A program made the translations under genes and the position numbers. From Thermoanaerobaculia bacterium (GTDB taxonomy: Bacteria > Acidobacteriota > Thermoanaerobaculia > Multivoradales > Multivoraceae), in contig OY761158.1 of NCBI GenBank assembly GCA_963664405.1, positions 5,120,001 through 5,184,000 of the forward strand: 64,000 nt of DNA, given 5' to 3'. The notes under the pieces were generated by a model. That model was not told where the DNA came from. It was given only the letters and a program-made list of their open reading frames with translations, and made no database searches. Below are positions 14,170 through 20,999 of this stretch, piece by piece (position 1 is the first letter of the stretch; each line of letters starts with the position of its first letter).

Positions 14170-14742
14170 TCAGTCGCCCACCTCGTGGGCCATGATCACC
14201 AGGTCGTGGGTGTCGCCCGCGGTATCGATCACCCAGTCGGCCAGCATGGACTCGAGGTCGAATCCCAATTTGCGAAAGACACCCCTGGCGGCCTCCTGGT
14301 CGCGAGGCATCTGCGCAATGATCTTGCGCAAGCTCGAGTGGCGAGCCACGTCGAGGATCTCGTCGGCGAGAAGAGAGCCAAGCCCGGTCCCCCGATAGCC
14401 GGGACCGACATTGAGGCGGATCTCACCCAGATGCCGCGACCATTGGGTGGGCTGACGATTGAGACTGCCGTAGCCGGCGAGGGTTTGCCCGTCGTAGGCC
14501 AGCACCGTGAAGGTCTGACCGGCTTCGATGTTTCTGACCCACTCCGCAACGACGTCCTGGCGAGTGATGTCCAGGGGCAGGAAGAGTAGATCCTCCTCCT
14601 GCAGCCCGCGCGCGAATTCGACGATATCACCGCATTCCGCCTCGGTCAGCGTCCTCAGCTCCAGATCCTTCCCTCGGGCTTTGACCGTGCGCGGGTAGGA
14701 ACGGCCGGCTTGGAGCGAGGGTATGATCGGCCTTGTCGTCAC
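14170..14742 (-). CDS. GNAT family N-acetyltransferase
   Basis: Motif A VGPGYRGTGLGS; FRKLGF. Confidence 0.85.
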   Translation of the reverse strand: MTTRPIIPSLQAGRSYPRTVKARGKDLELRTLTEAECGDIVEFARGLQEEDLLFLPLDITRQDVVAEWVRNIEAGQTFTVLAYDGQTLAGYGSLNRQPTQWSRHLGEIRLNVGPGYRGTGLGSLLADEILDVARHSSLRKIIAQMPRDQEAARGVFRKLGFDLESMLADWVIDTAGDTHDLVIMAHEVGD

Positions 14743-14798
14743 CCGAGAAAACTATCAGAACAACCGGCGCCTCACCTCCGCTCTGTTACGCTGCCGTT

Positions 14799-16748
14799 AT
14801 GGAAGAGCGGGTCTTCGGTCACTACCGCGTCGTCGAGGAGTTGGGCCGGGGTGGCATGGGTGTTGTCTACAAGGCCTTCGAGGAGTCGCTGAACCGCTCC
14901 GTCGCGATCAAGGTCCTTGCAGATCATCTCACTGAGGACGAGGATTTCGTCAAGCGCTTCAAGCGGGAGGCTCAGAGTGCGGCGGGCCTGTCGCACCCCA
15001 ATGTCATCCAGATCTTCTTGATCGGCGATGAGCAGGGGGTTCCGTACTTCGTCATGGAGTTCGTCGAAGGGCCGTCAGTGAAGGATGTTCTGAAGAAAGA
15101 GGGGCCCATGGCCTCGGGAGTAGCGGCGAGGCTTGCTCGCCAAGCGGCTTCTGGGCTCGCGGCGGCCCACGACCGGGGTCTGATCCATCGTGACATCAAG
15201 CCCGGAAACCTGATGGTCGCGAGGGGCAATCAGATCAAGATCGCCGACTTCGGCCTGGCCCTCCAGCCCGAGGACGCGGCGACACGATTGACCGCCACCG
15301 GCATGCTGATGGGTACGCCTGGATATCTCTCGCCGGAGCAGTGCGGAGGAGCCTCGCCGGACTCCCGCAGCGACATCTACTCGCTGGGCATGACTCTGTA
15401 CGAGATGCTGGCCGGCTCCGGCCCTTTCGAGGGCAACAGCCCGCTCGCCATCATTCGCCAGATTCTCTACGAGGAGCCGACGCCTCTGGATGAGCTCGAC
15501 ATCGGCGTCAGCCCGCAGCTGAACGAGATCGTGGCGAAGATGCTTGCCAAAGCGCCGTCAGAGAGGTACCAGAGCTGCCGTGAGGTGATGGATGCTCTCA
15601 AGGTCTACATCGAGCGGATTGCACCGTTGGAGGAAGCGAGCGGCCTGACGGTGCCGGTGACAATGCCGGCACTTTCCGGCTCTGCAGAGTTGCCTCCCCT
15701 CCCGGAGCTCCCGTCGGCCGCGAGCGCTGTTCGGGCGCCCACGACGCCGCTGCCGGCAGGTGCGACCCAGCGAGTCGAAGACATTCCTCCGTCCGGAGCT
15801 TACGGCTCGCCGGGTCGTCGTCGGCTGCTCCTGGTCGCTATCCTCGTGCTGCTCCTGCTCGCGGGCGCTGCAGGTATCGCCCTGGTGGCGGGCCCACGTC
15901 TGCAGTCGGCCTGGGCTGACTTCCGAGGAGAGAGAGAGAGGCTCGAAGAGCCCCTGGTCGAGGAAGCAGTCGCGGCCCAACCAGAGCGCCCGGTTGCCGG
16001 CGAGGTGGAGGAGGCGCCGGGACCCGAGCCCGCAGTGCTCGCGGAGCACGCAGACACGGCACCGCCATCCGTCACGGAGAGCCCGCTGGCGTCCGAAGCG
16101 CAACTCGCTGGAACGGCTGGGGAGTCCTCGGTGCAGGAGGCTCCTGGGGCACCTTCATCCCACAGTGGAGTGGTGGATGCCGGGGATCCGATGCCGACTC
16201 GCCTCCGCGCCGAGGCGGCTGTGGCTCCGACCACCCGCGAGAGCCGAGATCGTCCTCCGCCTCTACCCGCTCTTCCGCGGCTGATGGTACTCGGCACCGG
16301 TGAAGCCGCGCTGGCCACCGCCGTCGAGCAGGCGCTGGAAGAGGATCTCGGCCGCCGCGGCTTCGAAGTCGTGGATGAGCGCTCCATGCCCGAGATTGAC
16401 GACCTACTGAAATCGGGCAATGGGAGCGTGACCCACCTTGCCCCCTATCTCGCCGTCAACGATGTGCACGTCCTGGTGGTGGCGGAAGCTGAGTTCCTCG
16501 GAGAGCGAGAGCTCCGCTATTTGGGGCGCCGCAGTTTAGGGCTCAGCTCCGAGCTTCGAATCCACAGCTTTCTCACCGCCGGTCAGCGTGCCCTCGGGCA
16601 GGGTTGGAGAGAGCGCCTGGAGTACACCGGACTGACCGCAGCGAAAACTGCGGATCAGGCGTTGGAGGCCGCTGGCCCCGAGCTCGCCGATGCGATCCGA
16701 GACGGTTGGGCCCTCTTCCGCGAGGAGCGCGGCGCGCCCAGGCTCTAG
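14799..16748 (+). CDS. Membrane-anchored Hanks-type Ser/Thr protein kinase
   Basis: LGRGGMG, VAIK, HRDIKPGN, DFG, GTPGYLSPE; TM segment followed by an extracytoplasmic region. Confidence 0.92.
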   Translation: MEERVFGHYRVVEELGRGGMGVVYKAFEESLNRSVAIKVLADHLTEDEDFVKRFKREAQSAAGLSHPNVIQIFLIGDEQGVPYFVMEFVEGPSVKDVLKKEGPMASGVAARLARQAASGLAAAHDRGLIHRDIKPGNLMVARGNQIKIADFGLALQPEDAATRLTATGMLMGTPGYLSPEQCGGASPDSRSDIYSLGMTLYEMLAGSGPFEGNSPLAIIRQILYEEPTPLDELDIGVSPQLNEIVAKMLAKAPSERYQSCREVMDALKVYIERIAPLEEASGLTVPVTMPALSGSAELPPLPELPSAASAVRAPTTPLPAGATQRVEDIPPSGAYGSPGRRRLLLVAILVLLLLAGAAGIALVAGPRLQSAWADFRGERERLEEPLVEEAVAAQPERPVAGEVEEAPGPEPAVLAEHADTAPPSVTESPLASEAQLAGTAGESSVQEAPGAPSSHSGVVDAGDPMPTRLRAEAAVAPTTRESRDRPPPLPALPRLMVLGTGEAALATAVEQALEEDLGRRGFEVVDERSMPEIDDLLKSGNGSVTHLAPYLAVNDVHVLVVAEAEFLGERELRYLGRRSLGLSSELRIHSFLTAGQRALGQGWRERLEYTGLTAAKTADQALEAAGPELADAIRDGWALFREERGAPRL

Positions 16749-17833
16749 AGCGACCCGACCTCATGCCCCATGGCGCGAAGTCGATTCGCCATATCGGGCT
16801 TGTCGACGGCCTTGTAGTAGGCGTCTTTCGGATCGGCGGCACCTTCGCGCACGAGACGTTGGAGATCGTCGTTGAGTAAGCGCATGCCGTGGCGTTGACC
16901 GACCTGCATGGCCGATGGCAGCTGGTGGGTCTTGGCCTCACGGATCTGATTTGCCACCGCCGGCGTACCGATCAAGATCTCCAAGGCCGCTACCCGGCCG
17001 CCACCGCCGGGGCGTCGAAGGAGGGTTTGAGAGATTACTGCGGCCAACGATTGCGACAGCATCGAGCGGATCTGCTCCTGTCGCTCGGCGGGGAACTGGC
17101 CGATGATGCGGTCGATACTCGAGGACGCGGTCGTCGTATGGAGGGTGCCTATCACCAGATGTCCGGTCTCGGCGGTGGTGATGGCGGTCTCGGTGGTTTC
17201 CAGATCCCGCATCTCGCCGATCATGACAATGTCGGGGTCCTGGCGCAGAGCCGCGCGTAGGGCACGCCTGAAGCTGGTTGCGTGGACTCCCACCTCACGT
17301 TGGTCGATCAAGCAGCGCTCGCTTTTGTGGACGAACTCGATCGGATCCTCGATGGTGATGATGTGATCGGAGCGGCTGCGGTTGATTCTGTCGATCATCG
17401 CAGCAACGGTTGTGGTCTTGCCGCAGCCGGTGGGCCCGGTGATCAAGACGAGACCCTTGTTGAGCTCGCAGAGCTCGGCGAGCACCGGTGGCATGCCGAG
17501 ATCCTCGAGAGTCAGGATCTTGCTTGCAATATGACGAAAGACGCCGCCCATGCCCAAGCGGTCGCGAAAGACGTTGACGCGGAAGCGTCCCAAGTCGGCT
17601 TGTTCGTAGCCGAAGTCGGTGTCCGCCTTCTCTTCCAGCTCCTTGGCGTTGCGCTCGGGCAGGATCTCTCGGAGCAGTCGCTCGGTCTCTTCCGCCGACA
17701 GCTTGGCGCCCGCCTCTCCGACGCCCACCATGCTACCCGAGACTCGGTAGACAGGTTGCTCCCCTGGGCTCAGATGAAGATCGGAGGCCTCGGTGGCGAC
17801 TTGGACCTTCAGGTATCGATCTATGTCCGGCAT
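16745..17833 (-). CDS. pilT: Type IV pilus retraction ATPase PilT
   Basis: ASDLHL, GPTGCGKTT, TIEDPIE, ALRQDPD, GEMRD, AETGH, TLHT, QIRE. Confidence 0.93.
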   Translation of the reverse strand: MPDIDRYLKVQVATEASDLHLSPGEQPVYRVSGSMVGVGEAGAKLSAEETERLLREILPERNAKELEEKADTDFGYEQADLGRFRVNVFRDRLGMGGVFRHIASKILTLEDLGMPPVLAELCELNKGLVLITGPTGCGKTTTVAAMIDRINRSRSDHIITIEDPIEFVHKSERCLIDQREVGVHATSFRRALRAALRQDPDIVMIGEMRDLETTETAITTAETGHLVIGTLHTTTASSSIDRIIGQFPAERQEQIRSMLSQSLAAVISQTLLRRPGGGGRVAALEILIGTPAVANQIREAKTHQLPSAMQVGQRHGMRLLNDDLQRLVREGAADPKDAYYKAVDKPDMANRLRAMGHEVGSL

Positions 17834-17840
17834 GTTCCCG

Positions 17841-18530
17841 TCACTTGATCCTGGGTGTCTCGGGGTGGGGCGTGATGCATAAGATTGCGTGATAGGGCAC
17901 GAGGTGCAAGCGGCCGTCGGCATCGCGAAGCCGTAACAGATGGCCGGCGGGACCGGGCTCGAAGCCCACCAGGTTGCCCTCGAGATCGCTGCCGTCAGCG
18001 AGACGCAGAGTCGCCTCGTTGTGACTGTCGACCAGCTCGCGGAGGCCTAGCTGGTCGAGACCCGACGTTTGCAGGTTCCACTCGATGCTGGCGCGAAGAA
18101 GGTCGAGAAGGAGTCGAGCATCCTTCGACATGAGACCGAGAAAGTGCTCGAGGAGGTGGTCCCTGGTCGCCGGCGAACGCTCTCGTAGCTCGCGAAAGGA
18201 CCCGGCATCGAAACGCAGGAGCCGGGTCGGCTCGATTGCCGTCGAGGTTGCGGCGGCTTGCTCCGAATCGATCGCGGAGGCCCAACCGAAGATGTCGCCG
18301 GCGCGCTTGGTCGCTAGAGTGCGATTGAGCTCGCCACCGGCGATAGGCATTACGATCTCGACCGCTCCCGACAGTACGACATAGACCGAACCGGCTGCCG
18401 CGTCCCCCGCGGTCTGGATTACTTCGCCTGTCGCTCGTTCCTCGGTCTGACTCAGAGAAAGGATGAGCTCGAGCTCATCGGATGCCATGCCTGAGAACAA
18501 GGGGTTGGTGCGGAGGTCGTCTGCCGTCAT
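17841..18530 (-). CDS. Cyclic-nucleotide-binding domain protein with C-terminal Sm/Hfq-like segment
   Basis: cNMP domain (PLFSGM...VYVVLSGAVEI...GDIFG...AT..AIEPTRLL); C-terminal TLRLADGSDLEGNLVGFE...LHLVPYHAILCI resembles Hfq Sm1/Sm2. Confidence 0.8.
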   Translation of the reverse strand: MTADDLRTNPLFSGMASDELELILSLSQTEERATGEVIQTAGDAAAGSVYVVLSGAVEIVMPIAGGELNRTLATKRAGDIFGWASAIDSEQAAATSTAIEPTRLLRFDAGSFRELRERSPATRDHLLEHFLGLMSKDARLLLDLLRASIEWNLQTSGLDQLGLRELVDSHNEATLRLADGSDLEGNLVGFEPGPAGHLLRLRDADGRLHLVPYHAILCITPHPETPRIK

Positions 18531-18588
18531 CGGTGCGCCATCTTAACTCGTGCCGGTTCTAGGAGTGCTCAATGCGAGGCTTCCCGGC

Positions 18589-18729
18589 CGCGCCCGTGAG
18601 GCGTATTTGAACGGCATTACTTTGCAAGCGCGCTCCGGTTTCAACCCGTTTCAGTTCGGTCTGTCGGGCGCCTCCGACTACCATTCGGGTGTCTCGGCGA
18701 TCGAGGAAGACAACGCGTCGGTGTTCAGC
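18589..18729 (+). pseudogene. Internal fragment of a DUF3604 gene
   Basis: AREAYLNGITLQARSGFNPFQFGLSGASDYHSGVSAIEED aligns by eye with [40 protein letters not shown] of the DUF3604 gene at 62465-64000. Confidence 0.75.
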
Positions 18730-18807
18730 GGCCCCTTTTCCGATAGCTCGGCGGAGCAGCGCATGTCGCGGGCGACGAGTGGTTGGGTAGCGCGGCCGAA
18801 ATAGCCT

Positions 18808-20342: not shown

Positions 20343-20609
20343 TCAGTACGCGTCTCCGCGGGGGAGCATCGCGTAGACCTGGAGCACCCGGGCCTTTCGA
20401 TCGGGCGTCAGGAGGATTCGCCAGCCACCCACCCTGACTCGGTAGTCCCCCTTGAGCTTTCCCGTGAGAGGGCGCACGCGGGGGTGGAGCAGGGGCTTGT
20501 CGGCGTTCTCGAGGCTGAGCAAGCTCTCCTTGACCCTGCGGCGAGTTGTTCTGTCGAGCTTGAGGTACTGCTTCTCGGCCGACGGCTTGACCTCAATCCG
20601 CCAGCTCAT
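20343..20609 (-). CDS. RelE/ParE family toxin
   Basis: MSWRIEVKPSAEKQYLKLD...RPLTGKLKGDYRVRVGGWRIL...PRGDAY. Confidence 0.88.
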   Translation of the reverse strand: MSWRIEVKPSAEKQYLKLDRTTRRRVKESLLSLENADKPLLHPRVRPLTGKLKGDYRVRVGGWRILLTPDRKARVLQVYAMLPRGDAY

Positions 20610-20832
20610 CGAGTCCTTTGCCCTCGACCCCCTCTGCGACCTCCTTCTTGCCACGAGCGATAATGTCGACCCATTCGGGCCGGGAAAGAAGGTCGAGCGT
20701 CTCCTGATGCCGCTCGATGTACTCGTCGATGAGCTCGGAGAGAATCTCCTTCATCTCGGTCTTCTCAACACCCGCGATGATTCGCAGGATGTCTCGCTTT
20801 TCCTCCGGAATTCTCACTGTTGCCGTCGCCAT
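20593..20832 (-). CDS. Cognate antitoxin (RHH-like)
   Basis: 79-aa ORF overlapping the toxin start; ATVRIPEEKRDIL...ETLDLL...ARGKKE. Confidence 0.8.
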   Translation of the reverse strand: MATATVRIPEEKRDILRIIAGVEKTEMKEILSELIDEYIERHQETLDLLSRPEWVDIIARGKKEVAEGVEGKGLDELAD

Positions 20833-20999
20833 GCATGCTCCTTTGCGGTCCACTAGTAGCCTAGGCGCCTGAGGGCATAGTGTCAACCAGGGGCCCCTAG
20901 CTTTTCGGCTGAGCCAACCGCTCGGCGCCTTGGCCCGAGGCCGGGGTCGCTACCAGTCAGAGTAGCGCGACGTGGCGGCCGTCCGGGCTGGCACCGCCC

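Follow-up and report, generated by a model that had tools for sequence, protein, structure and literature searches.

A cyclic-nucleotide-binding protein with an Hfq-like barrel, encoded beside a dedicated PilT paralog in a Thermoanaerobaculia bacterium

The genome of a Thermoanaerobaculia bacterium (GenBank assembly GCA_963664405.1) carries, directly upstream of a pilT gene, a gene whose product joins a cyclic-nucleotide-binding (cNMP) domain to an Hfq-like Sm barrel. The two genes lie in a stretch of 64,000 nucleotides (contig OY761158.1, positions 5,120,001 to 5,184,000), referred to here as the window; coordinates are those of the window unless another sequence is named. A reading of this DNA made from its letters alone (the original prediction) had proposed that the fusion protein is a ligand-sensing Sm-ring adaptor of PilT.

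The fusion gene and its pilT neighbor

The pair and its presumed control region are arranged as follows:

17841..18530, reverse strand: cNMP-binding/Hfq-like fusion gene (open reading frame [ORF] of 229 aa; AlphaFold2 [AF2] model with a predicted local distance difference test score [pLDDT] of 90.7; about 68 full-length cluster representatives)
17834..17840, reverse strand: 7-nt spacer between the fusion-gene stop and the pilT start (direct sequence reading)
16745..17833, reverse strand: dedicated pilT paralog, 362 aa (TIGR01420, 450.3 bits against a cut-off of 319.1)
18531..18807, reverse strand: upstream intergenic region of 277 nt, presumed promoter of the two-gene unit (gap between ORFs)

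The fusion gene ends with a TGA at 17843-17841 and, 7 nt on, pilT begins with an ATG at 17833 on the same strand, so that the spacing (17840-17834) and the 229-aa ORF, including the C-terminal sequence quoted for it, are as the original prediction described them. A longer pilT frame from 17923 is possible; homologs align from the Met at 17833. A consensus scan of the upstream 277 nt found no sigma-70-like site, and the promoter there is a presumption.

The family to which the fusion protein belongs was delimited by a HMMER search of 1.84 billion cluster representatives, which gave 4509 matches at E ≤0.001, most of them to the cNMP domain only. Full-length matches come from about 68 representatives of 215-250 residues, whose C-termini share a conserved hydrophobic-[IV]-P-Y-H-A-[IV]; a word-index search with the window protein alone returned only 2 matches. 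The family alignment used throughout has 69 rows. In their source databases these proteins are labeled "CRP-like cAMP-binding protein," "CRP/FNR family transcriptional regulator," "cyclic nucleotide-binding domain-containing protein," or "hypothetical protein."

A cNMP domain joined to an Hfq-like barrel

The following parts of the fusion protein were recognized:

18177..18449, reverse strand: cNMP-binding beta-roll, residues ~28-118 (PF00027; Foldseek and PDB sequence match to 4ev0)
18237..18290, reverse strand: degenerate phosphate-binding cassette, residues 81-98, FGWASAIDSEQAAATSTA (column counts in the 69-row alignment)
18060..18173, reverse strand: long connecting helix, residues 120-157, with conserved R139, R146, and W151 (DSSP of the AF2 model)
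17868..18044, reverse strand: Hfq-like Sm barrel, residues 163-221, a short helix and five strands (AF2 models, Foldseek, VIA-align, hhalign)
17883..17897, reverse strand: PYHAI motif, residues 212-216, counterpart of the Hfq Sm2 motif YKHAI (hhalign, column counts)

The N-terminal part is a cNMP domain. PF00027 matches residues 33-118 of the window protein (E 6.7e-14, 52.1 bits against a gathering cut-off of 27.5) and all 69 family members. A Foldseek search with the whole AF2 model returned CRP, PKA-R, and other cNMP domains only, led by Thermus CAP 4ev0 (E 6e-12), which a PDB sequence search also retrieved (E 9.7e-13). The beta-roll and the long helix that follows it resemble those of CRP/FNR proteins, but an Sm barrel stands in place of their helix-turn-helix (HTH): good CRP alignments end near residue 145-147 and the extension beyond aligns poorly (root-mean-square deviation [rmsd] 9-14), the Pfam scan matched no HTH family in the window protein, and neither HTH_Crp_2 nor any other HTH is among the 25 most frequently matched of the 32 Pfam families found in the 69 members. 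The cNMP-type beta-roll without a Crp HTH that had been read from the sequence is thus confirmed. It is very improbable that the family consists of ordinary CRP/FNR-type transcription factors with a C-terminal DNA-binding domain too diverged to recognize, an idea for which the source labels and the best whole-protein match to 4ev0 speak, since CRP matches break off at about residue 147 or continue in poor alignment, HTH families are missing from that same list, and the C-terminus is modeled as an all-beta barrel with pLDDT 83-90.

In CRP and PKA structures, the Gly-Glu and Arg-Ser/Thr of the phosphate-binding cassette hold the cyclic phosphate. The family consensus, FGE...RSA.A, is mostly canonical, with Glu in 42/69 rows and Arg in 57/69; both occur together in 42/69, accompanied by Ser/Thr in 37/69, and neither is present in 12/69, the window copy included. 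The latter reads FGW...DSEQAAA, with W at the Glu position and A at the Arg position, which bears out the non-canonical cassette noticed at the outset. Degeneration of the cassette is a trait of a minority of the family and not of the family as a whole. Because the canonical phosphate-binding residues are gone, the window copy is probably insensitive to cAMP and cGMP, or responds to something else. Beyond the cassette, W151 of the connecting helix is kept in 60/69 rows, and the spacing W151-x5-G157-x27-G185-x10-G196 is near-invariant in the family.

In the full-length AF2 model, which was built on the 69-row alignment (mean pLDDT as listed above), the beta-roll is followed by helix 120-157, a short helix (163-168), and five strands, the last two of which are separated by a 3-10 turn at PYHAI. 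A separate model of the C-terminal 79 residues, made from nine sequences (the window protein and retrieved loci), has a pLDDT of 76.8 overall and 83-90 in the barrel. Searched against the PDB with Foldseek, this C-terminal model gave at least 30 matches at E ≤0.001, with Hfq first (best E 1.8e-4); the matches listed at E ≤1.7e-3 are all Hfq apart from one Sm-like protein, and their sources include Listeria, Staphylococcus, Caulobacter, Synechocystis, Aquifex, Bacillus, Pseudomonas, Neisseria, E. coli, and Herbaspirillum. Many of these Hfq structures superpose with rmsd 1.2-1.6 Å over 63-69 columns at 18-31% identity (for example, 6gwk, rmsd 1.4 over 65 columns, 31% identity; and 3hfo, the Synechocystis Hfq, rmsd 1.6), and the top Hfq matches have template-modeling scores of 0.67-0.73 by query and 0.76-0.86 by target. 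VIA-align, which is independent of Foldseek and was run against 48,161 representative chains, likewise placed Hfq at ranks 1-6 (Z 10.0-10.8), with YaeO next (9.9), then a T4 neck-Hfq complex (9.7), Sm/Lsm proteins of archaea and eukaryotes (7.2-8.7), and WYL domains (7.1-7.7).

Profile comparison agrees with the models. When the C-terminal columns of the family alignment were compared by hhalign with canonical Hfq, aligned from 25 related genomes, the match had 96.1% probability (E 3.6e-9, 50 columns, 30% identity), PYHAI fell on YKHAI, and the family showed a four-residue insertion in the beta2-beta3 loop. Among 21 scrambled controls, the reversed Hfq alignment scored 3.6% and 20 column shuffles 0.1-6.8%. 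By profile and predicted structure, then, the likeness of the barrel to Hfq is more than chance. The parallel to Hfq drawn in the original prediction, including the HAI of an Sm2-like motif, has held up under two structure aligners that rank Hfq first and under hhalign, and the modeled C-terminus, for which the prediction had asked whether an Sm/SH3-like barrel would form, is an Sm barrel nearest Hfq.

Pfam models detect this relationship only below their cut-offs. Sub-threshold matches were obtained in the 69 members for Hfq_1 (12), Hfq (9), PRC_RimM (8), and LSM (6); in the members inspected the barrel matches lie at residues ~162-217, collinear with the models. The best member for Hfq (PF17209, gathering score 27 bits) reaches E 5.6e-5, the window protein has no PF17209 match at E ≤1, and a genome-wide PF17209 search also misses the fusion gene, although it finds a canonical Hfq elsewhere in the window genome (60.7 bits). 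The barrel is not an Hfq family member as Pfam defines Hfq; judged from its profile and predicted fold, it is a diverged Hfq homolog within the Sm/small-barrel group. Outside the window, a 131-aa frame with a basic tail contains a second, weak Hfq-like match (27.2 bits, model positions 11-60) at G000:C1:3783738-3783890 (G000 being the window genome); several relatives have a similar second match.

The resemblance to Hfq comprises the same helix and five bent strands, with 3hfo among the best structural matches, and the H-A-I of Sm2. The differences are that the barrel is C-terminal behind a cNMP sensor and not free-standing, is acidic and not basic, has PYH for YKH, has a beta2-beta3 loop four residues longer, and stays below the Pfam Hfq cut-off. 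In Hfq, the Lys and His of the Sm2 motif [YF]KHAI line the proximal pocket, and a stacking Phe contacts uridine. The counts in the PYHA[IV] columns are P 66, Y 58, H 52, A 56, and I/V 63 of 69, so that the Sm2 His is kept in 52/69 rows and the Lys is replaced by Tyr in 58/69; the position aligned with the stacking Phe is H, Y, W, or F in 39/69. The net charge of the barrel averages -2.3, is negative in 55/69 rows, and is -6 in the window copy, against a mean of +1.3 (positive in 21/25) for the Hfq of relatives.

Other small barrels were considered. The sole Pfam hint in the C-terminus of the window protein is PF24986 (PRC_RimM; residues 185-214, E 0.15, 12.2 bits against 27), and among the eight members with sub-threshold RimM matches the best E is 4.2e-5. 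An hhalign comparison with RimM barrels (26 sequences) gave 63% (E 7e-5) over 30 columns, the longer Gly-rich loop among them; this match is weaker and shorter than that to Hfq, and no PRC barrel is among the top structural matches. A PilZ-like barrel was rejected: PilZ is found neither among the 25 most frequently matched families nor among the top structural matches, and the family consensus G-x4-G presumably does not fit the PilZ motif.

The barrel occurs, by sequence comparison and as far as a word-limited search reaches, in one architecture only. A search with the C-terminal 79-residue profile among proteins of 154-2000 residues returned 88 proteins, 87 of which, 174-284 residues long, have PF00027 as their sole Pfam domain. 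The exception, P0268 (196 aa), is encoded on L137, a 2248-base metagenome contig; in it the barrel alone is attached to the N-terminal domain of aconitase B (PF11791), and pilT again comes next. As one member on one contig it is likely a deletion or assembly chimera and not a second architecture. In L140 an open frame of 823 aa gives the protein a long extension at its N-terminus. This was discounted: it has no Pfam domain besides cNMP and is most likely an open frame in GC-rich DNA.

Linkage to a separate clade of PilT

Adjacency to pilT was followed in the Victivallales subgroup of the family and in the subgroup around its member in G040, a genome of the same order as the window genome but a different family. 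In all 32 informative loci (the window, G040, seven metagenome-assembled genomes [MAGs] of Victivallales/Lentisphaerae, and 23 metagenome contigs), a pilT follows the fusion gene on the same strand. The seven MAG loci came from a one-genome-per-species scan with an alignment of the AT-rich subgroup, all seven being followed by pilT, and their PilTs are 55-57% identical to that of the window. A metagenome scan with an alignment of the GC-rich subgroup yielded 25 loci, in 23 of which pilT begins 21-142 nt past the last aligned codon; the other two contigs end ahead of any downstream gene and were counted as uninformative. In the first nine loci the spacer is -1 nt (a TAATG overlap) in two, 6, 7, 10, and 11 nt in four (the 11 nt being those of G040), and 106, 118, and 161 nt in the remaining three. 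Clustering of flanking ORFs showed the fusion gene and pilT to be the only genes common across lineages. Homologs unlinked to pilT, which would have spoken against the original prediction, were not met among these loci.

In four Victivallales loci a gene for an HD-domain phosphohydrolase of about 200 aa lies directly upstream of the fusion gene:

L060:3393-3986: HD-domain phosphohydrolase gene
L061:3396-3986: HD-domain phosphohydrolase gene
L063:2855-3544: HD-domain phosphohydrolase gene
L064:3325-3930: HD-domain phosphohydrolase gene

The L061 and L064 copies, which were scanned, match PF01966 (E 5.6e-9 and 6.3e-8), and in L060 and L061 the gene overlaps the start of the fusion gene by 4 nt. 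The HD protein may be a nucleotide phosphodiesterase of the same signaling unit.

The linked PilTs make up a dedicated clade. The window PilT matches TIGR01420 (PilT/PilU) over model positions 2-341 of 343; it is probably an active ATPase, because its Walker A (GPTGCGKTT) and His-box region (TGHLVIGTLHT) are intact. It is one of six PilT/PilU-family genes above cut-off in its genome (four Victivallales genomes have five or six each), and it is 40-46% identical to the five other paralogs of its own genome but 55-64% identical to linked PilTs elsewhere. A maximum-likelihood tree was computed for 35 PilT/PilU proteins, taken from G000, G040, four Victivallales genomes, and three other loci. In this tree the nine linked PilTs group as a single clade (ultrafast bootstrap 98; Shimodaira-Hasegawa-like approximate likelihood ratio test [SH-aLRT] 82; 99% of bootstrap trees), a result equaled in none of 500 label shuffles. 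Eleven positions show conservation of 90% or more among 24 linked PilTs and are shared by at most 10% of 26 other PilT/PilU proteins; on sequence grounds they are candidate contact or specificity residues:

Window PilT (16745-17833, reverse strand), linked-PilT-specific residues: 59, 65, 72, 126, 156, 190, 219, 220, 235, 246, and 270

The sister of the linked clade is an unlinked PilT of G040 (L079:1171-2577, G040:C212). A 182-aa ORF (L079:615-1163) ends 8 nt upstream of that open frame; it has a weak DUF6812 match (E 0.0011), was rejected as a relative of the fusion family (hhalign 0.3%), and may serve a related PilT as a small partner of another kind. Elsewhere in the window genome, at G000:C1:5514629-5516705, two PilT/PilU-family genes stand in tandem.

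There are no pilus genes among the window neighbors of the fusion/pilT pair. These neighbors encode a convergent Ser/Thr kinase, a GNAT acetyltransferase, a CitMHS/TrkA-C transporter, an S41 peptidase, and a ParE-type toxin pair, and the fusion gene and pilT are a self-contained pair outside pilus gene clusters. The kinase gene (14733-16748, forward strand; 671 aa) overlaps the 3' end of pilT with its own 3' end by four bases (16745-16748). At 20343-20886, a ParE-type toxin gene (PF05016, E 7.8e-6) and an overlapping upstream ORF of 97 aa, which has no Pfam match, are probably a toxin-antitoxin pair.

The family is rare among relatives of its host. A full-length homolog was found in only one of 60 relatives, G040 (35% identity), and among 401 sampled genomes of the phylum full-length matches occur only in G000 and G040; the tally includes three unpublished genomes (G083, G108, and G209), which contribute cNMP-only matches.

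Possible roles of the pair

Receptors of second messengers that act directly on type IV pilus ATPases are known, among them PilZ with PilB and the c-di-GMP binding of the MshE type. FimX, acting on PilB, is a further such receptor (PMC5595344). In cyanobacteria Hfq is required for piliation, and both EbsA and PilB, the pilus ATPase, come down with it in co-precipitation (PMC8092324), so that the earlier statement that cyanobacterial Hfq binds PilB and is needed for type IV pili is in print; the co-precipitated proteins of that study reportedly include a PilT homolog as well. The family described here resembles the first group in coupling a sensor of nucleotide messengers to a pilus motor ATPase; it differs in having a cNMP domain and not PilZ, EAL, or GGDEF, an Hfq-like output, a PilT-type target, and a self-contained gene pair outside pilus clusters. 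With cyanobacterial Hfq it shares a functional association with a type IV pilus ATPase (PMC8092324), but the family is linked to PilT and not to PilB, and the window genome keeps a separate canonical Hfq.

We hold it somewhat more probable than its negation that the fusion protein is a two-domain signaling protein, made together with a specialized PilT-family ATPase and acting on or with that ATPase. The conserved pair, the dedicated PilT clade, the acidic barrel, and the cyanobacterial precedent with PilB and EbsA are our reasons for proposing a sensor-adaptor that docks on PilT; the acidity of the barrel, unlike Hfq, argues against RNA binding and for protein docking. The two proteins would come from the same two-gene unit, probably with translational coupling. 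The Hfq-like domain would be a protein-docking module, possibly oligomeric like Hfq, that binds the hexameric PilT paralog and tunes its activity or localization, and pilus retraction or another PilT-driven process would be tuned in turn. For the majority of the family, the interaction with PilT would depend on the state of the cNMP domain, relayed by the connecting helix.

A more specific form of this proposal, in which a cNMP-gated, Hfq-derived ring sits on the dedicated PilT hexamer and switches it on or off, is conceivable, and we advance it tentatively. It comes closest to the ligand-sensing Sm-ring adaptor of the original prediction, of which the Sm barrel nearest Hfq, the conserved link to pilT, and the separate PilT clade stand, while ligand sensing finds no support in the window copy, which is without both phosphate-binding residues.

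Several observations weigh against a PilT-docking sensor-adaptor. Many of the 32 loci are close kin (the proteins of L117 and L118 are 100% and 97% identical to that of G040), and by identity bands the independent lineages number perhaps six to eight, from at least two phyla. A helix of the CRP type points to a dimer, a poor fit with a six-fold Sm ring. The Sm2 His and an aromatic residue or His at the stacking-Phe position are kept in many rows, as they would be in a nucleotide or RNA pocket. The cyanobacterial precedent concerns PilB and not PilT. With the cassette Glu and Arg missing, ligand sensing may not apply to the window copy. Finally, because full-length matches occur in just 2 of the 401 genomes of the phylum, the pair may be horizontally mobile and its function not tied to the main pilus of the host.

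The first alternative to PilT docking is an RNA-binding protein under cyclic-nucleotide control, whose Hfq-like ring would bind RNA (e.g., the pilT message or a small RNA) and set its translation or stability, with the link to pilT reflecting regulation of the operon and not contact between the proteins. Homology of the barrel to Hfq, retention of the Sm2 His and of H, Y, W, or F in place of the stacking Phe, and a spacing tight enough for translational coupling would all fit such a protein. We nevertheless consider it unlikely: the barrel is acidic where the Hfq of relatives is basic, the Lys of YKH has become Tyr in most members, the helix region that carries the basic rim of Hfq reads ELVDSHNE in the window copy, and the genome already has a canonical Hfq. 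For the cyanobacterial Hfq that works with PilB, RNA substrates are reported as not identified (PMC8092324).

Less probable still is a barrel that serves the cNMP receptor as a small-molecule or nucleotide pocket, or as a module for dimerization or oligomerization, with the output going to some other partner and PilT co-expressed but uncontacted. Sm-like and WYL barrels are ligand sensors elsewhere (the WYL proteins DriD, BrxR, and CapW are among the VIA-align matches at Z 7.1-7.7), conservation is strongest in the pocket-like PYHA and in G185 and G196, and the HD-domain phosphohydrolase gene at the start of the fusion gene in four Victivallales loci suggests nucleotide metabolism. Against this stand the presence of pilT as the only conserved neighbor in every informative locus and the fact that the linked pilT is a separate, co-travelling clade, which is hard to explain without a shared function. 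Docking on PilT remains the reading that we prefer.

Second-messenger receptors on pilus ATPases and the Hfq-PilB partnership are already known; new are the present architecture, the PilT target, and the self-contained pair. A search of full texts, with most subscription journals outside its coverage, brought up neither a cNMP-Hfq/Sm fusion nor any Hfq-type protein that partners PilT; this agrees with the original claim that the architecture was undescribed, as do the "CRP-like" labels given by the sources. A role as transcription factor is improbable for several hundred proteins that now carry the names "CRP-like" or "CRP/FNR transcriptional regulator."

Regulation of PilT-type motors is poorly understood compared with that of PilB, and the sensor-PilT pair offers a testable handle on one paralog in genomes with five or six PilTs. 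If PilT docking is correct, the family would provide another, independent example of an Hfq-type domain that acts together with a pilus ATPase, the second after cyanobacterial Hfq, and would support a protein-adaptor role for bacterial Sm domains. If a ring does sit on PilT, it would represent a new class of direct second-messenger control of the retraction motor, and the partnership of cyanobacterial Hfq with its ATPase would exemplify an older, more widespread role of Sm rings, that of adaptors for ATPases and not of RNA chaperones.

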